A stretch of DNA of 19,651 nt from a virus (lineage: Duplodnaviria > Heunggongvirae > Uroviricota > Caudoviricetes). Position 1 is the first letter of the stretch. Every line of letters starts with the position of its first letter. The stretch lies in the IMG/VR virus record IMGVR_UViG_2648501186_000006; one strand, 5' to 3'. Under the pieces are notes generated by a model. It did no database searches, had not been told where the DNA came from, and saw only the letters and a program-made list of their open reading frames with translations. This document shows positions 1,783-16,165 of this stretch, piece after piece. The translations under genes and the position numbers were made by a program.

Positions 1783-1817
1783 CATTTGCGCGGTTCTCAT
1801 CAAGCAGTGGTATTGAT

Positions 1818-2627
1818 ATGCAAGAAGAGAAACAACACTACCTCTACGTTCTGGTGCCAGAGAACGGAGATACTTTTAAAATCGGCATTTCATGTGGTCC
1901 ATTGGCACGGTTTAAAGGGCTACAAGTGAATCCCGATTTTGCGCTTTCACGGGTCTATCGTGGTACGCGTTTGGCAATGGTTAATCTTGAGCGGGCTTTA
2001 CACGCAACCTTTTTCCCCTGGAATGCGCCGTGGGAGAAAAGCGCCGGTGGCGGGCATACTGAATGGTTTACACGAGAGTGTCTTGATAAGGTTTTGGCTC
2101 ATATCGAATATCTAAATGATATGTGGGGAGTGATTCTCGAGCGCATTAAGTCGAATGATTTACTTCAGCGTCCAGTAGATGCTGCTCGCTCTTTCGAAAA
2201 AGAGCTGGATGTTACTTCTATCGTGACTTTCAAAGATGACGCAGGAATGAGGGACGTGGCTTATGTCTCCATATCTGGCTATGAACTGGACGCGATCCGC
2301 GCTCAATGTGAATTGCTGAAAGCAATGTTTATGCTTCGGGCTAAATATCCCTGGGAGACAAGGCGGGTGTGCTTCCCTATGGAAGAGTTAACCGGCACCA
2401 TTGATTCCCAGCTTTACCACGATAATCCAGAGAAGTTTTTTAGCCTTTTAGCCGGTAATGGGCTTAACTGTGTGTCCGGGCTGGGGCGAAGTAGAATCCA
2501 ACATGCCTCGCTCTTCGGTCCCTTCTTTTACGATCGACACGGGTACTTTGAGACTGAACTTCCGGCGCTTACGCGTGCTATAGATACTATCGATTTCGAA
2601 CGATTATTCGCTGCTCTTAGCAAATAA
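1818..2627 (+). CDS. GIY-YIG-like (T5orf172-type) domain protein with an unrecognised C-terminal half
   Basis: N-terminus YLYVLVPENGDTFKIGIS...LARFKGLQ...LERALHATF...GGHTEWF fits the Y-x-Y-hh...KIG-x-S/T...R...L...E..LH..F...EWF pattern of the T5orf172 / GIY-YIG-like family. Weak SD. Sits between the control iterons and the parA operator. Confidence 0.55.
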   Translation: MQEEKQHYLYVLVPENGDTFKIGISCGPLARFKGLQVNPDFALSRVYRGTRLAMVNLERALHATFFPWNAPWEKSAGGGHTEWFTRECLDKVLAHIEYLNDMWGVILERIKSNDLLQRPVDAARSFEKELDVTSIVTFKDDAGMRDVAYVSISGYELDAIRAQCELLKAMFMLRAKYPWETRRVCFPMEELTGTIDSQLYHDNPEKFFSLLAGNGLNCVSGLGRSRIQHASLFGPFFYDRHGYFETELPALTRAIDTIDFERLFAALSK

Positions 2628-2634
2628 CACTGAT

Positions 2635-2656
2635 GCCCCTGAACGGGGCTTTTTTG
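2635..2656 (+). terminator. Rho-independent terminator
   Basis: GCCCC-tgaac-GGGGC stem-loop followed by TTTTTT, 8 bp after the stop of the 1818..2627 gene. Confidence 0.6.
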
Positions 2657-2744
2657 TGTCCTCCTTGTAACTCTCAATCGTGCAAAATGAACCAAACATG
2701 CAGAGAATGCTATGTACAAGCATCTGTGCATACATTATTATTTT

Positions 2745-2795: not shown

Positions 2796-3992
2796 ATGAG
2801 TGATTCCAGCCAGCTTCACAAGGTTGCTCAAAGAGCAAACAGAATGCTCAATGTTCTGACTGAACAAGTACAGTTGCAAAAGGATGAGCTACACGCGAAC
2901 GAGTTTTACCAGGTCTATGCGAAAGCGGCACTGGCAAAATTGCCTCTACTGACTCGAGCGAACGTTGACTATGCCGTAAGTGAAATGGAAGAAAAGGGTT
3001 ATGTTTTCGATAAACGCCCTGCTGGCTCTTCAATGAAATATGCGATGTCAATTCAGAACATCATTGACATATATGAACATCGCGGAGTGCCAAAATACCG
3101 GGATCGCTACAGCGAAGCGTATGTGATTTTCATCTCCAATCTTAAAGGCGGTGTGTCAAAAACTGTATCGACGGTTTCTCTGGCGCATGCAATGCGTGCC
3201 CACCCTCATCTTCTGATGGAAGATTTAAGGATTCTGGTTATTGACCTTGATCCGCAATCTTCAGCAACGATGTTTTTAAGCCATAAACACTCTATTGGTA
3301 TCGTAAACGCAACATCTGCACAGGCTATGTTGCAGAATGTAAGCCGTGAAGAGCTGTTAGAGGAGTTTATTGTTCCTTCTGTTGTACCTGGGGTTGACGT
3401 TATGCCTGCGTCGATTGACGATGCCTTTATTGCATCCGATTGGAGAGAGCTGTGCAATGAGCATCTACCGGGTCAGAACATCCATGCTGTCCTGAAAGAG
3501 AATGTGATTGATAAGCTGAAGAGCGATTATGACTTTATCCTCGTTGATAGTGGTCCTCACCTTGACGCCTTCCTGAAAAATGCTTTGGCCTCGGCCAATA
3601 TACTGTTTACACCTCTGCCGCCAGCAACTGTCGATTTCCACTCATCGCTTAAATACGTTGCCCGCCTTCCTGAGTTGGTGAAACTCATTTCGGATGAAGG
3701 CTGCGAGTGCCAGCTTGCGACTAACATTGGTTTTATGTCCAAGTTGAGTAACAAGGCAGATCATAAGTATTGCCATAGCCTGGCTAAAGAAGTGTTCGGT
3801 GGGGATATGCTCGATGTCGTCCTCCCTCGCCTTGACGGTTTTGAACGTTGCGGCGAGTCTTTTGACACTGTTATTTCAGCTAACCCGGCAACGTATGTTG
3901 GTAGTGCTGATGCATTGAAGAACGCGCGAATTGCCGCGGAAGATTTTGCTAAAGCAGTGTTTGACCGTATTGAATTTATCAGATCTAACTGA
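2796..3992 (+). CDS. parA: Type Ia partition ATPase ParA (P1-type, 398 aa with N-terminal DNA-binding extension)
   Basis: Deviant Walker A KGGVSKT at about residue 117 after a roughly 100-aa N-terminal extension, typical of large ParA. SD AAGGATGA. Followed within 16 bp by parB, then a P1-type parS. Confidence 0.93.
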   Translation: MSDSSQLHKVAQRANRMLNVLTEQVQLQKDELHANEFYQVYAKAALAKLPLLTRANVDYAVSEMEEKGYVFDKRPAGSSMKYAMSIQNIIDIYEHRGVPKYRDRYSEAYVIFISNLKGGVSKTVSTVSLAHAMRAHPHLLMEDLRILVIDLDPQSSATMFLSHKHSIGIVNATSAQAMLQNVSREELLEEFIVPSVVPGVDVMPASIDDAFIASDWRELCNEHLPGQNIHAVLKENVIDKLKSDYDFILVDSGPHLDAFLKNALASANILFTPLPPATVDFHSSLKYVARLPELVKLISDEGCECQLATNIGFMSKLSNKADHKYCHSLAKEVFGGDMLDVVLPRLDGFERCGESFDTVISANPATYVGSADALKNARIAAEDFAKAVFDRIEFIRSN

Positions 3993-4008
3993 GGAGTAAG
4001 AAACCCCC

Positions 4009-5010
4009 ATGTCAAAGAAAAACAGACCAACAATTGGGCGAACCCTTAATCCTTCAATATTAAGCGGATTTGATAGTTCTTCAGCCTCTGGCGATCGAGT
4101 CGAGCAGGTATTCAAGTTATCAACTGGTCGCCAGGCCACATTTATCGAGGAGGTAATTCCTCCGAACCAGGTAGAAAGCGATACCTTTGTTGATCAGCAT
4201 AACAACGGGCGTGACCAGGCATCTCTTACGCCAAAATCATTAAAAAGTATCCGAAGCACTATTAAGCATCAGCAATTTTACCCTGCAATAGGTGTTAGAC
4301 GGGCTACAGGGAAAATTGAAATTTTGGATGGTTCCCGGCGTCGAGCTTCTGCCATCTTAGAGAACGTAGGGTTGCGGGTTTTAGTCACGGACCAGGAGAT
4401 CAGCGTTCAGGAAGCGCAAAATTTAGCGAAAGACGTTCAGACAGCATTGCAGCACAGCATTCGAGAAATAGGTCTGCGTTTGATGCGAATGAAAAATGAT
4501 GGGATGAGTCAGAAGGATATTGCAGCCAAAGAAGGGCTATCTCAGGCGAAGGTCACGCGTGCTCTCCAGGCAGCGAGTGCTCCGGAAGAATTAGTCGCCC
4601 TTTTCCCTGTGCAGTCGGAATTAACCTTTTCGGACTACAAAACGCTTTGTGCTGTTGGCGACGAAATGGGGAACAAGAATTTAGAGTTTGATCAGCTTAT
4701 TCAAAATATATCCCCGGAAATAAACGACATCTTATCCATTGAAGAAATGGCCGAAGATGAAGTTAAAAATAAAATCCTGCGCTTGATAACAAAGGAAGCC
4801 TCACTACTCACGGATAAAGGTTCTAAAGATAAGTCCGTAGTTACTGAATTATGGAAATTTGAGGACAAGGATCGCTTTGCAAGGAAGCGCGTGAAAGGCC
4901 GTGCATTTTCTTATGAGTTTAATCGACTCTCAAAAGAGTTACAGGAAGAACTCGACAGGATGATTGGGCATATCCTTAGAAAGAGCCTCGATAAAAAGCC
5001 GAAGCCTTAA
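4009..5010 (+). CDS. parB: Partition centromere-binding protein ParB (P1-type, 333 aa)
   Basis: SD GAGGAG at 3991-3996, ATG at 4009. Immediately downstream of parA and upstream of the parS boxes, with a central HTH-like segment (MSQKDIAAKEGLSQAKVTRAL). Confidence 0.93.
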   Translation: MSKKNRPTIGRTLNPSILSGFDSSSASGDRVEQVFKLSTGRQATFIEEVIPPNQVESDTFVDQHNNGRDQASLTPKSLKSIRSTIKHQQFYPAIGVRRATGKIEILDGSRRRASAILENVGLRVLVTDQEISVQEAQNLAKDVQTALQHSIREIGLRLMRMKNDGMSQKDIAAKEGLSQAKVTRALQAASAPEELVALFPVQSELTFSDYKTLCAVGDEMGNKNLEFDQLIQNISPEINDILSIEEMAEDEVKNKILRLITKEASLLTDKGSKDKSVVTELWKFEDKDRFARKRVKGRAFSYEFNRLSKELQEELDRMIGHILRKSLDKKPKP

Positions 5011-11962: not shown

Positions 11963-13018
11963 CTATAAACTCTGAACAAGACGTTCGATTGCTGCACCAT
12001 ATCTTTCTAATGGTTCATTATTGATTTGTGGCTCAGTGTCATGGATCTGATATCTGCCTGGTTTTATATCAAATAGAGGTCTTCCTAGATGGGAAGATAC
12101 TATAGCTACGGAATGGTTATCTGGCACAGTAAACGTTTTTAAATTTCCGCCTTGGAACGCTGTTGGTTTATTCGTCCGCAGATTTTCAGCTCTATCCCTG
12201 ATTTCGTCGAACATTGCCGAAAACGCTTTACTTGCTCGTTTGTCATACTCTGTCGAACGATTAAAAACTAGAGAATGAATGACAGGAACCGCTAGACCAA
12301 ACTGTTGACACCGATCGTAAAAGTTAACAGAACGATAATCGTTTTGTACTCCAACGCCATAAACCAACTGGCTTAGGTTATCCACTGCTCGAGCCGAAGA
12401 ACCATCACTTGAGCAAGGTATTATAATTGCATTTGCTGCTATCAGTGATAGTTCGGTATAGGCAGAGAAACTGGGGTTGCAATCAATAAAGCAAATGGTT
12501 TCTTCGATACCTTGTTGTTGTGCGCATGCAACAAGCAAATCTCGTAGCCACAGGTGGATGCTTTTCCATGAGTCAACTGGTAAGTTTACGCTGCTTAACT
12601 GATTGATTACTTGCGCCTGAACTTCCAGGCTTGGGTCGCCTGCAATCAAAAATACATTGTCAGGGACATGCTCGTTAATTTCAGAGACATGAATTAAGAA
12701 ACTTGTTTCTGAACCAGTAAGCATGTGGGGGCTACGGGTTCTTCTGTCAAAGTACCCACCGACAGTTTTTCGTTGTTGAATTAAGCTCGCGAGGTTAGCA
12801 GCACCAGTACCGTTACCGCCGAGCAATATTTCAGATAAGTTAGCCTGTGGACACATATCTGCAAAAATAATACGCTTTTCTGGATTTTGCCTTGCGTATT
12901 CACAGGCCATAGCGAAAGATAAGTAGGTCTTTCCTACGCCACCTTTATTATTCCAAATAGCATATGATTTCATGGTATCCCCGGCGTTATCTGCTGTTTG
13001 TGTGCCAGCATAAGTCAT
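11963..13018 (-). CDS. ParA/MinD-family P-loop ATPase (deviant Walker A), orphan with no adjacent ParB
   Basis: NNKGGVGKT Walker A and hydrophobic-D Walker B (ICFIDCNPS). 351 aa from ATG 13018, or 336 aa from ATG 12973 which puts Walker A at residues 9-16; both have a plausible SD. Co-directional with and just downstream of repL; about 41% GC. Confidence 0.7.
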   Translation of the reverse strand: MTYAGTQTADNAGDTMKSYAIWNNKGGVGKTYLSFAMACEYARQNPEKRIIFADMCPQANLSEILLGGNGTGAANLASLIQQRKTVGGYFDRRTRSPHMLTGSETSFLIHVSEINEHVPDNVFLIAGDPSLEVQAQVINQLSSVNLPVDSWKSIHLWLRDLLVACAQQQGIEETICFIDCNPSFSAYTELSLIAANAIIIPCSSDGSSARAVDNLSQLVYGVGVQNDYRSVNFYDRCQQFGLAVPVIHSLVFNRSTEYDKRASKAFSAMFDEIRDRAENLRTNKPTAFQGGNLKTFTVPDNHSVAIVSSHLGRPLFDIKPGRYQIHDTEPQINNEPLERYGAAIERLVQSL

Positions 13019-13282
13019 TATGCATCTCCATTACTATCCATGAATTAAGTCAAAAAATATGTAAAAGTAGCAATTTATCACTCTTTTACTCATTATAAAC
13101 GTTACAGGTTGTGATGGTTAGCTGTGTTTTTATCAGTACAAGTTTTGATCTGGCTTTGGGGGGTTATATATGGATATGTCTCAAAGATGCCCTGCAAAAA
13201 GCGATCGCTAACTGTAAAAAATCAGATTGCATCTTCGACCTCAAACTGAAAACGCCAGGTGACTCCAGATTAGAGCAATCTA

Positions 13283-14128
13283 TCACCCTCTGAATCCTGC
13301 CGGTATACCCCATTGTTCGTTATCTTTATTTTTGGCTAAAACCGCATTAAGAGCTTCGTTTACCGTCATGCAATGCGGCAGATTATCGAAGTTTGATACC
13401 CCGCCAATATCAGGAGAACGCTTGTTCTTCAGGTAAGCATATTTCCGCGCTGCCGCCTCTACTTTCTGCTTGAACTCATGTTTTTGAGCGCGTTTTTTGG
13501 ATAAACGCAGATTGTCGGCCTTTGCTTTTGCCCCAGCGATCCATGAAGTCAATTTTTTGAGTTTGGTCGTTCCGGCAGCGCCGGAAACTGATCTTTTTGT
13601 TTTTTTAAATTGTGACTTCTTATTCTTTATTGCCACGTCATCCTGACAGGGGGAGGGGGTATCATTTTGACATGGGGGTGTGGATAAAAAATCAAATAAA
13701 GCCAATGTCTTAGCGAGAACAGCTTTAACCTTGGTTGCGGCTGAAGAGATCTTTAATTTGCTTTCAATTAGCGCATTTTTGGCTTGTTGAGCAAAGGCTA
13801 AAAAGGATGGTGTAAACCGGTACAGGTTAGCGCGGCGTTCACGGTGATCGCCGATAACAATCTCTACCGACAGGATTCCTTTGTTTACAGCTTCACGGAA
13901 TGCGCGAACGACGGTTGATTGGCTATAACCAGTTTCTGCCGCGATCATGCGGTGAGGCTTGTGAATGAAGTATTCACTGGTTGTTGCCGCGAGATTTGCA
14001 CATTGCGACAGGATATGCCCGGCGCTACGGGATAGACCGGAGTGTGTTACAAAGCAGGCCAATTCATAGCCAGAAAAAGTAAAATCGCTCATCGTTATAC
14101 AGCTCAGGAAAGTGACTTTAGCCAGCAT
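13283..14128 (-). CDS. repL: Lytic replication protein RepL (P1-type)
   Basis: Immediately downstream of kilA on the same strand under a C1-operator promoter, the P1 kilA-repL arrangement; sequence matches my recollection of RepL. True start may be the internal ATG at 14092 (MSDFTF...). Confidence 0.75.
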   Translation of the reverse strand: MLAKVTFLSCITMSDFTFSGYELACFVTHSGLSRSAGHILSQCANLAATTSEYFIHKPHRMIAAETGYSQSTVVRAFREAVNKGILSVEIVIGDHRERRANLYRFTPSFLAFAQQAKNALIESKLKISSAATKVKAVLAKTLALFDFLSTPPCQNDTPSPCQDDVAIKNKKSQFKKTKRSVSGAAGTTKLKKLTSWIAGAKAKADNLRLSKKRAQKHEFKQKVEAAARKYAYLKNKRSPDIGGVSNFDNLPHCMTVNEALNAVLAKNKDNEQWGIPAGFRG

Positions 14129-14157
14129 TACAATGCTGGTGGTTCTTACTACGTCTG

Positions 14158-14958
14158 TTAGCGCGTTGCCGCGACAGGTACCAGCACACCAGCATCAAGC
14201 AATCGCTTTATCAGCCACTGCTGACCTTTGCCGGTTATACGAGTCGTGAAAGAAATCCTGCTTCCATTGCTTGTATCGATCACGGTTTCTTTAAGGGTGA
14301 AATACCCACGAGATATGTATTCTTGTTTGGGAACGTTCCTGCGTTCACCGGTTGCGATCAGAATTCCGTTATCACGCAACCAGGTGAAGAGATAGTTTTG
14401 GCCCAGGCCGAGCACTTTGGCATAGTTGCCGATTAGAACCCCGCTGGCGGTAGCAACGCGTTCGGCGAATTCGACTTTAGGTGCATCCATCAGCATTTTT
14501 TGCTCCAGCCGTTGCTTTTGCTCTGCCAGGTCGGCAGCCAAACGGAGAGCTTCTGGGAGGCTCTTCGGAATAGCAGGTTGTAATCTTCCAGCTCGATAGT
14601 CGATAAATGTCTGGTTTACCTTCAGCCGAAACGCGGGAGAAATCCAGCCTGCGTACTCCACAGCGAGCAATTCATGGGCAAAAGTGCCGCCGCCACGGCC
14701 TTCGAACGAAACTATGCAATTCTGCATAGTTTCTTTTTCCAGCTCTTCGATGAGCTGTTTGGCTGACAGCGTTCTTAGCCATTGAGCTGGCGCTTTATGG
14801 GCACCGAGTCCGCTCGCTCTGTGTAGAGCATTAAGGTTGTAACGGCCAGCGCGGTCGGTCGTAATTTCAACACCACAAATAACAGGCAGAGTGGTTGAAG
14901 GATCGACATTTTGATGAAGGTTTGATATATTCATATCCGCATTGAATGTTTGTTGCAT
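14158..14958 (-). CDS. kilA: KilA (KilA-N domain plus C-terminal ANT/KilA-C domain)
   Basis: 266 aa, SD GGAG before ATG. The C-terminal roughly 130 aa is clearly paralogous to the Ant C-terminus in this window (shared LPEALRLAA-LAEQK...GKGQQWL...LLDAG). Position upstream of repL. Confidence 0.8.
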   Translation of the reverse strand: MQQTFNADMNISNLHQNVDPSTTLPVICGVEITTDRAGRYNLNALHRASGLGAHKAPAQWLRTLSAKQLIEELEKETMQNCIVSFEGRGGGTFAHELLAVEYAGWISPAFRLKVNQTFIDYRAGRLQPAIPKSLPEALRLAADLAEQKQRLEQKMLMDAPKVEFAERVATASGVLIGNYAKVLGLGQNYLFTWLRDNGILIATGERRNVPKQEYISRGYFTLKETVIDTSNGSRISFTTRITGKGQQWLIKRLLDAGVLVPVAATR

Positions 14959-15027
14959 TTTTTCTCCAAATTTGCATCAACCTTCAATCACCAGCTCGAA
15001 ATGGTGATTCTTTGCACTTAGAAAACG

Positions 15028-15044
15028 AAATTTATTAGAGCAAA
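15028..15044 (-). promoter_or_regulatory. C1 repressor operator (Op53-like), 16 of 17 match to ATTGCTCTAATAAATTT, over the kilA-repL promoter
   Basis: - strand reads tTTGCTCTAATAAATTT; located 70-90 bp upstream of the kilA start, as for P1 P53/Op53 (established knowledge). Confidence 0.55.
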
Positions 15045-15086
15045 TTTTTCTGACTCGATCCAGATCGGGTTGGTCGATCTGCTCAG

Positions 15087-15120
15087 AAACCTGCCAGTTT
15101 GCTGGCAGGTTTTTTCTTTT
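15087..15120 (-). terminator. Terminator after ant (hairpin CCTGCCAG-caaa-CTGGCAGG)
   Basis: Stem-loop 2 nt after the ant stop. The U-tract on the - strand is short (TTTCT) while the + strand side has a long T-run, so efficiency in the ant direction is uncertain. Confidence 0.5.
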
Positions 15121-15121
15121 G

Positions 15122-16165
15122 TTAACCTATTGCTACTGGTTTTAACAAACCAGCATCAAGTAGCTTGCGAGTTAACCACTGCTGGCCTTTACCCGTTAAT
15201 TGGGGCGTCAGCCGTATCTGGTAGCCATTTTCATCATCCAGCACCACTTCTTTCACCGTGAAATACCCGGCGTTAATGTACTGCTGGCGCGGTACGTTTT
15301 TGCGCGCACCAAAAGCCATGAGAATGCCGTTCTGGCGCAACCATGAGAAAAGGGCGTTTTGCTTAAGTCCAACGACCTTTGCAAAGTTCCCGATCAGGAT
15401 TCCATTAGCCACTGATACCCGGTCGGCAAAATCGACTTTAGGGGCTGCGGCCACCAGCTGTTGTTCCAGCTGCAATTTCTGTTCTGCCAACTCGGCAGCC
15501 AGGCGTAGGGCTTCTGGTAATGTTTGGGGGATCGATGGGGTAGGGGAGTTTGCCTGCTGCAATTCTTCCAGTTTGTCGATCAGCGAACGGCGGACCGCTT
15601 TCGATTCGCGCGCGGCGACTCGCAGGGCTTGTTTGTAGGTCATGGTTATGACAACCATAGGCGTACCGCCACCTGGCGGCACGGTTGCACTTTTTGTGTA
15701 ACCGTCCTCACCTTCTAATTCGTCGAGTATTTTTTCGATGAATTTGTTGTTCCGAACCTCTGGTTCCCCACATAACTTACGCGCTTCATTGACCATCTTT
15801 AACAGTGTCAGGCTGTCGATTGTGTCTCCGGTGGTGGGGATGACATTCACGGCTGGTGCTGGCGTTGCTGAAGCAACAGGTGCTGGTTTTTTAACATTCA
15901 AATTATTACTGGTCATTCTATGTGCCTCCTTTCTCATTTCTGCTGCCACCGTTGCGTAACGTAGACGTCCTTGTTCAATCAAATAATCCCTGATCTCGGC
16001 TATCAGTAGCCTGTTGATCACAGCCTTATCTGTTCGGGTATAAAAACGCCTGGTTATCATGAAATAGTTGGCAATTGCGCCGGGGATCTCCCGTGTCGGT
16101 ATACAGGCAGTATGCAGGGCGATCGCTTCGGCTATGTCATTACGGGTGACGAGAGGTTTTTTCAC
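15122..16165 (-). CDS. ant: Antirepressor Ant (Ant1; internal in-frame Met near residue 77 could give an Ant2-like product)
   Basis: 347 aa, downstream of c4 and icd with a GTG start overlapping the icd stop (GTGA); C-terminal ANT/KilA-C domain shared with KilA. Matches the P1 immI layout. Confidence 0.85.
   Translation of the reverse strand: MKKPLVTRNDIAEAIALHTACIPTREIPGAIANYFMITRRFYTRTDKAVINRLLIAEIRDYLIEQGRLRYATVAAEMRKEAHRMTSNNLNVKKPAPVASATPAPAVNVIPTTGDTIDSLTLLKMVNEARKLCGEPEVRNNKFIEKILDELEGEDGYTKSATVPPGGGTPMVVITMTYKQALRVAARESKAVRRSLIDKLEELQQANSPTPSIPQTLPEALRLAAELAEQKLQLEQQLVAAAPKVDFADRVSVANGILIGNFAKVVGLKQNALFSWLRQNGILMAFGARKNVPRQQYINAGYFTVKEVVLDDENGYQIRLTPQLTGKGQQWLTRKLLDAGLLKPVAIG

Follow-up and report, generated by a model that had tools for sequence, protein, structure and literature searches.

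The stretch of DNA analysed here, referred to as the window, comprises 19,651 nucleotides (nt) of the IMG/VR virus record IMGVR_UViG_2648501186_000006 (Caudoviricetes) and contains a complete plasmid maintenance region, in which an origin, repA, control iterons, an open reading frame (ORF) of 269 amino acids (aa), the par promoter/operator, parA and parB follow one another. The ORF, which encodes a predicted DNA-cutting enzyme of the T5orf172 (GIY-YIG-related) family, is the subject of this analysis. The window is 100% identical to NZ_CP122664, a P1-like plasmid of 67,952 bp from a pig E. coli strain that bears insertion sequences (IS), and 98-99% identical to the phage-plasmids SJ46, RCS47 and JL22. 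An earlier reading of the window without database searches (the original prediction) had reported a 269-aa ORF with its own terminator between the control iterons and the parA operator, and this arrangement has been confirmed; the span of 1783-2660 given at that time covers, besides the ORF, its terminator and the spacer that follows the last iteron. The features of the region, in window positions, are the following.

350-358, + strand: DnaA box TTATCCACA on the left margin of the origin, an exact consensus match whose position corresponds to that of the P1 oriR DnaA box.
364-420, strand not applicable: five GATC (Dam) sites in the origin, at 364, 377, 399, 410 and 417; five annotated Dam sites are equally placed in P1 oriR.
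460-560, + strand: five origin iterons with the core TTGACTATACGCGA at 21-22 nt spacing, found by repeat search and mismatch scan.
641-1525, + strand: repA, encoding a Rep_3-family initiator of the p0111 class (Pfam Rep3_C and Rep3_N; 41-43% identical to P1 RepA).
1526-1787: copy-control iteron array, with two forward iterons (1526-1541, 1550-1565) and four reverse ones (1645-1663, 1707-1725, 1739-1757, 1769-1787).
1818-2627, + strand: the 269-aa ORF, with a T5orf172 nuclease domain and a predicted winged-helix C-terminal domain (ORF call, Pfam, model).
1818-2129, + strand: N-terminal domain of the ORF product, aa 1-104, T5orf172/GIY-YIG fold with Y10, K21, R31, E58, H62 and E82.
2190-2624, + strand: C-terminal domain of the ORF product, aa ~125-269, predicted to form a winged helix, with the WH1 domain of Rep initiators as its closest counterpart.
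2635-2659, + strand: intrinsic terminator of the ORF, a stem at 2635-2649 followed by a T-run.
2694-2697: right boundary of the replicon cassette, 67 nt past the ORF stop, where 99% identity to P1 begins (blastn of the window against P1).
2713-2798, + strand: Ppar promoter and ParA operator (promoter scan; transferred from the P1 annotation at 99% identity).
2796-3992 and 4009-5010, + strand: parA and parB; ParA and ParB are 100% identical to the P1 proteins.

The start of repA has been taken as the ATG at 641, following the RefSeq coding sequence in the 100%-identical plasmid. The terminator behind the ORF folds with -13.2 kcal/mol (z = -3.2), and none of 200 shuffled sequences (0/200) folded equally well. 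No terminator-like site has been found by the terminator scan in the interval between repA and the ORF, and a consensus scan has revealed no promoter for the ORF, the ribosome-binding site of which is weak; we infer that the ORF is co-transcribed with repA.

By its sequence, the window replicon is assigned to the p0111 class of P1-like elements and not to the IncY class of P1 (both described in PMC9603915), because RepA shares 41-43% identity with its P1 counterpart and the iterons differ, their core being TTGACTATACGCGA in the window vs ATGTGTGCTGGAGGG in P1 and in the P1-like contig L004. Between ~435 and 2694 the window has no DNA identity to P1, whereas outside 435-2694 it is 99% identical, and the replaced block holds oriR, repA, the control iterons and the ORF. 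In P1 itself no gene lies between incA and parA according to the P1 annotation, as had been stated in the original prediction. The idea that a gene had been inserted into the P1 R-replicon has had to be given up, as the whole block of ~435-2694 is a different, p0111-class cassette in which the gene is fixed. MOB-suite typing in PLSDB labels the replicon of the loci L009-L015 as 'IncHI1B'. This label appears to be a mislabel in view of the RepA identity to P1 and the fact that one such matching plasmid record is itself named for the p0111 class.

The N-terminal domain matches Pfam T5orf172 (PF10544) over aa 8-85 with a score of 27.0 bits (gathering threshold 20; E = 6.5e-6), and the same family is matched by 65 of 67 aligned relatives. 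The assignment to T5orf172/GIY-YIG made in the original prediction has thereby been borne out, and all motifs on which it was based are present, i.e., Y8-L-Y10, F20-K-I-G-I-S25, R31, E58-x-x-L-H62-x-x-F65 and E82-W-F84. Across the 67-sequence alignment Y10, R31 and E82 are invariant; among ~150 relatives, Y10, K21, G23, R31, E58, H62 and E82 are invariant or nearly so, with Y10 kept in 147/150, R31 in 150/150 and E82 in 148/150. 'KIG' occupies the place of the 'YIG' of classical GIY-YIG enzymes, and the residue four positions after R31 is a Leu, where the first helix of the classical enzymes has His or Tyr. Regarding the catalytic residues, the Tyr, Arg and Glu that align with those of GIY-YIG nucleases are retained and invariant in the subfamily, while an equivalent of the metal-binding Asn has not been identified. 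The nuclease Odn of the phage ICP1 is likewise devoid of the first-helix His/Tyr and yet active (PMC8263062). Over its full length the ORF matches PHROG 2876, to which no function is assigned, and the RefSeq entry for the product (WP_046788896.1) is named 'GIY-YIG nuclease family protein'. Searches of the product against NCBIfam have returned no match, and a PDB sequence search has returned nothing for either the whole protein or the C-domain profile. In PADLOC-DB 2.0 the product has matched 0 families at E up to 1, so that the role in defence considered in the original prediction has gained no support from there.

A structure model calculated by AlphaFold with the 67-sequence alignment is confident, with a mean predicted local distance difference test (pLDDT) score of 84, whereas a single-sequence run has been useless (pLDDT 35). 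The model is laid out as a nuclease domain, a long helix linker and a C-terminal winged helix. Its N-domain adopts the GIY-YIG fold, and the matches in BFVD include many T5orf172 phage proteins and a COG5527 Rep. The top PDB matches that Foldseek has found for the whole model are all replication initiators, namely RctB domains 2-3 (E 9e-3), the Rep WH1 domain 6h24 (E 0.023), RepE54 and the WH1 domain of pPS10 RepA, and two methods place winged-helix domains of Rep initiators as the best or near-best structural match of the C-terminal half. For the C-domain (aa ~125-269) a winged helix is thus predicted, with the nearest resemblance to the WH1 domains of those Rep initiators that bind iterons, a resemblance which we present as a lead and not as a result, the scores of the structural matches being weak and the C-terminal alignment comprising four sequences only. 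By sequence, this half is as unrecognisable as the original prediction had stated, with neither a Pfam match nor a PDB-profile match. The C-terminal halves of all four homologues are without a Pfam match and without a CapR/DUF723/DUF4397 zinc-finger module, and the ORF product contains no CxxC pairs. Comparison of the C-domain with the RepA of the window by BLASTP gives E 3.1 and hence no link; by hhalign, the probability is 0.2% for the P1-type RepA family and 0.5-1.5% for true fusions of T5orf172 with Rep_3.

The gene is common, already annotated in RefSeq and not peculiar to the window. In PLSDB the replicon occurs in 397 records at an identity of at least 90% and the ORF in 401 records; it is fixed in the sense that every p0111 replicon (~397) carries it, and most of the ~400 alleles are annotated as full-length. 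It is found in 412 of 5,426 complete E. coli genomes (~7.6%), nearly always on a plasmid. The IncY records, at least 374 in number, have no gene between incA and parA. Literature searches have found no published functional study of the ORF product. Neither of the two results named in the original prediction as refuting it has come up, as the Pfam match is significant and the gene, for which no role is recorded, is absent from P1.

Relatives have been sought among 5.8 billion proteins with a word index and among 1.84 billion representatives with a full HMMER scan. HMMER has matched 165 sequences in all, but only three relatives are full-length (P0004, 43% identical; P0009, 27%; P0011, 26-30%), and the other ~160 share the N-terminal domain only. 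All three full-length relatives lie in P1-like contigs (L003, L004 and L005) and occupy the corresponding slot, with repA and its control iterons on one side and parA on the other, so that the four cassettes, the window included, represent three iteron types. In all four lineages the ATG of the gene is found 21-31 nt past the last control iteron. The three diverged homologues that share this slot across other replicon types are new here. Since the RepA of L004 is 83% identical to P1 RepA and L004 carries the gene, a close relative of the P1 replicon does possess it; P1 has 214 bp of unrelated sequence at the slot in question. A 93.7-kb plasmid (CP042620, 4248-5700) has a RepA 85% identical to that of the window and similar control iterons, past which come ~350 bp of non-coding DNA and tail genes; both the nuclease gene and parA are missing. 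A search for remnants of the gene in the 172-bp incA-Ppar spacer of P1 and after the iterons of CP042620 has yielded chance-level matches only.

The edges of the exchanged DNA have been observed in two sister pairs. Like the window and P1, the contigs L003 and L004 are highly similar (96-98.6% identical) outside a block, here of ~2.2 kb. In both pairs the swapped block consists of oriR, repA and the iterons, plus the gene where it is present, and ends 63-84 nt past the stop codon of the gene, just before Ppar. In P1-like phage-plasmids, the gene closes an exchangeable replicon cassette as its last gene. At this one locus it is present or absent among related genomes, L004 having it and P1 and the IncY plasmids being without it.

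Over ten p0111 loci, the ratio of non-synonymous to synonymous polymorphism (pN/pS) is 0.48 for the ORF, compared with 0.02 for repA, 0.00 for parA and 0.06 for parB. Of these ten alleles, four are broken; nonsense mutations account for two (Q228* in SJ46 and W72* in pTA13-2) and frameshifts for the other two, the latter resulting from small deletions (two of 1 nt, one of 2 nt) that could be sequencing errors; the broken copies are those of L006 (SJ46, 3319-4128), L014 (4020-4829), L008 and L013. Because of these broken alleles and the high pN/pS, and because P1 and IncY replicons function without it, the gene is taken to be clearly dispensable and fast-evolving. The allele of the window has five private non-synonymous changes, all of them in the C-domain, and zero private synonymous ones, a bias that is not significant alone. 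Between the window and L003 the RepA proteins are 83% identical and the ORF products 43%, with 63% in the N-domain and 30% in the C-domain. For L004 and L005, N-domain identity is 61% (76% as DNA over 231 nt), although the RepA proteins are 43% identical and the repA genes cannot be aligned as DNA; this comparison of gene history with flanking-gene history, which covers four lineages only, hints that the gene or its nuclease domain may have moved between cassettes. In each of the four lineages the ORF has remained full-length and the invariant residues are intact. The G+C content does not set the ORF apart from its neighbours, and a recent foreign origin is therefore not indicated.

Beyond the P1-like cassettes, the same subfamily includes true fusions of T5orf172 to Pfam Rep3_N with or without Rep3_C (P0015, P0048 and P0128; E 1e-7 to 1e-11). 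On a 58.9-kb metagenomic contig (L016, 3617-6293), three 32-nt iterons and a Rep_3 gene are followed 20 nt later by the T5orf172-Rep3_N-Rep3_C fusion P0048, whose Rep part shares 47% identity with the adjacent Rep (E 4e-64), with the last ~165 nt being 85% identical as DNA. This contig, with its rep gene plus fusion, and the window-type cassette provide at least two independent cases in which a putative T5orf172 nuclease with a DNA-binding domain of initiator type (in the window by predicted fold) comes after a rep gene. The fusions share with the ORF product the subfamily and the order of a nuclease domain followed by an initiator-type winged helix (in the ORF product by predicted fold), and the gene in L016 likewise lies directly after a rep gene with iterons; they differ in that their Rep domains are recognisable by Pfam, whereas the C-domain of the ORF product has no detectable sequence similarity to any Rep. 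Other members of the subfamily include one on a plasmid, one in a phage rich in HNH endonuclease genes, and the chromosomal P0014, which adjoins Mrr- and WYL-domain genes in a neighbourhood resembling a defence island.

The nuclease-linker-DNA-binding build, the intact conserved residues and the position at the cassette edge, together with presence or absence among related replicons, the fast divergence above all in the presumed targeting domain and the frequent inactivation, suggest that the ORF encodes a selfish or competition nuclease, i.e., one that is linked to the replicon cassette and either resembles homing endonucleases or is directed at origins. We regard the chances of this reading as evenly balanced. 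Membership of the family, the conservation of residues, the folds (as predictions), the distribution and position of the gene, its relaxed constraint and its often inactivated alleles have been observed, while the nuclease activity, its target and the outcome are postulated. On this view the two domains would make up a DNA endonuclease that acts at specific sites, in the manner of a homing endonuclease with a free-standing gene or of an 'origin-directed nuclease'. Expression of the product would occur at a low level from the repA/iteron region, as may be expected from the constant distance of the ATG to the last iteron in the four lineages, the lack of a detected upstream terminator and the weak ribosome-binding site. 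Through its winged-helix domain the product would recognise a specific site in a related plasmid devoid of the gene, probably in or beside the replication region of this rival, and the tethered nuclease domain would cut nearby, whereupon the rival would either be lost or be repaired by copying the nuclease-bearing cassette. The gene is needed for neither replication nor partition. The suggestion in the original prediction that the protein might act on related replicons fits these results.

In I-TevI and the Seg proteins of T4, an N-terminal GIY-YIG catalytic domain is connected by a linker to a C-terminal DNA-binding domain within ~220-270 aa, and the genes stand free between conserved genes. 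Domain order, similar size and free-standing location between conserved genes are shared by the ORF product, whereas it belongs to another GIY-YIG subfamily, has another DNA-binding domain, and its homing role is putative. Closer in family are the T5orf172 proteins of ICP1-like, T5-like and other phages, which mark boundaries of genetic exchange as putative homing endonucleases (PMC10448857) and resemble the ORF product in nuclease family, two-domain build, position next to essential genes, association with exchange boundaries and fast turnover; they are present in many copies in lytic phages, whereas the ORF is a single fixed copy in a plasmid replicon. A characterised likeness is ICP1 Odn (Gp88), the 'origin-directed nuclease', in which T5orf172 is fused to a RepA-like domain and which is a proven nuclease, dependent on the equivalent Glu, that cuts the origin of a rival at its iterons (PMC8263062). 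Both proteins combine a T5orf172 nuclease domain with an initiator-type DNA-binding domain (in the ORF product by predicted fold), both keep the conserved Arg and Glu without a first-helix His/Tyr, and both are tied to replicon conflicts, in the case of the ORF putatively. In Odn, however, the initiator-like domain is N-terminal and 42% identical to a RepA_N domain, whereas that of the ORF product is C-terminal and Rep_3 WH1-like by predicted fold only; moreover, Odn is encoded by a lytic phage, and the ORF sits inside the replicon cassette of the plasmid itself.

Several points weigh against a selfish or competition nuclease. The zinc-finger DNA-binding modules (CapR/DUF723/DUF4397) found in ~87% of the phage T5orf172 homing endonucleases (PMC10448857) are, as judged from its sequence, absent from the ORF product. 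The C-domain also does not track the iteron type of its own cassette, as the window and L003 share iterons and yet have C-domains of 30% identity. Many IncY P1-like plasmids, among them L022 and L023 (1145-1261), have a different par operon with a ParA of 401 aa and a ParB of 321 aa, lengths as in L005, and in these plasmids the homology to P1 stops exactly at the end of incA without any nuclease gene; the rep/par junction is therefore a module boundary even without the gene, and its position requires no nuclease as an explanation. The ~100 nt downstream of the junction are identical in nuclease-bearing plasmids and P1 and offer no self-protecting difference, so that only a target within the rival cassette or spanning the junction would spare the gene's own plasmid. 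A clean empty site, i.e., near-identical plasmids with and without the gene, has not been found, the plasmids without the gene differing in the whole cassette, and as every p0111 replicon carries the gene, recent homing is not visible.

A narrower form of the selfish or competition nuclease would be an initiator-mimicking, replicon-guided nuclease, whose Rep-WH1-like domain directs it to the iteron region or the RepA of a competing P1-type plasmid, where the cut would eliminate the rival or convert its cassette. We put this forward tentatively and consider it rather doubtful in so specific a form. Another use of a WH1-like domain would be that of a domesticated, non-cutting replicon accessory that binds DNA or RepA, the winged helix contacting the iterons or pairing with the WH1 domain of RepA and thereby modulating handcuffing, copy number or par expression. 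The fixation of the gene in every p0111 replicon, its synteny in four diverged cassettes, the ATG always at 21-31 nt past the last control iteron and the predicted WH1-like C-terminal fold would all be in accordance with such a role, and a precedent exists in CapR of the Vibrio cholerae PLE satellite, a domesticated relative derived from the same nuclease family and put to regulatory, DNA-binding use. CapR, however, represses by means of a zinc-finger domain, whereas the ORF product keeps the nuclease residues, and the invariance of those aligned with the catalytic Tyr, Arg and Glu would be unexpected in a non-catalytic derivative. With the gene being dispensable (4/10 alleles broken, pN/pS 0.48 vs 0-0.02 for repA and parA) and P1 and IncY replicons working without it, an accessory of this kind is judged improbable. 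Still less can be said for a structure-specific nuclease in the service of the replicon, which would resolve paired or handcuffed origins or replication intermediates, or nick the origin; a match to Slx1 is due to no more than the common GIY-YIG core, the gene can be dispensed with and is under little constraint, and P1 and other iteron replicons of its type do without such an enzyme, which makes this explanation highly unlikely.

An accessory nuclease for defence or exclusion, protecting host or plasmid from unrelated phages or plasmids, would agree with a fast-evolving, single-gene nuclease on a phage-plasmid and with the neighbourhood of P0014 (Mrr, WYL). No PADLOC model has been matched, however, the full-length relatives are confined to one slot of P1-like replicon cassettes and not to variable cargo regions, and the linkage to rep genes recurs elsewhere, so we see small prospects for this role. 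The relaxed constraint, the frequent nonsense and frameshift alleles and the five private non-synonymous changes in the window allele against zero private synonymous ones may alternatively be read as the decay of a passenger gene without present function, carried along by a successful replicon. This we hold to be very unlikely, given full-length ORFs with intact invariant residues in four lineages diverged to 26-43% identity and the full-length annotation of most of the ~400 alleles.

Resistance genes in E. coli and Salmonella are widely carried by P1-like phage-plasmids, about half of which have the ORF inside the replicon cassette, IncY and p0111 being the two main replicon classes. Should the selfish or competition nuclease indeed cut rivals or drive conversion, it would be for plasmids what the 'origin-directed nuclease' is for phages, and would show by what mechanism replicons are replaced and related plasmids compete. 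If it were in addition replicon-guided, it would be an active 'incompatibility weapon' that helps to explain the exchangeable replicon classes of P1-like phage-plasmids, and pairs of a rep gene and a T5orf172-Rep-like nuclease would form a wider class with L016 as the second example. If it neither cuts rivals nor drives conversion, the ORF would be one more selfish nuclease gene and an ordinary finding.

Some further observations concern the surroundings of the ORF. A near-perfect iteron, TTGACTATAAGCGA with 1 mismatch, lies within the repA coding sequence at 1245-1258 of the window and is kept at the same place in the diverged L003 (5610-5630). Between the forward and the reverse control iterons, at 1571-1600, a palindrome TTGACGC-N16-GCGTCAA is located, part of which (TTGACGCTGG) recurs at the equivalent place in L003 and CP042620; as no T-run follows, it is probably not a terminator. 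At 2726-2727, in the par promoter spacer inside the ParA operator, the window reads GT instead of AC, a change private to this plasmid, as P1 and eight other p0111-type loci read AC at these positions. Finally, transposase genes of the IS91 family and IS100 are found at ~12900-15900 of the window (15445-18429 in L015), and with these genes and a size of only 67,952 bp the source plasmid looks like a deleted, probably defective derivative of P1.

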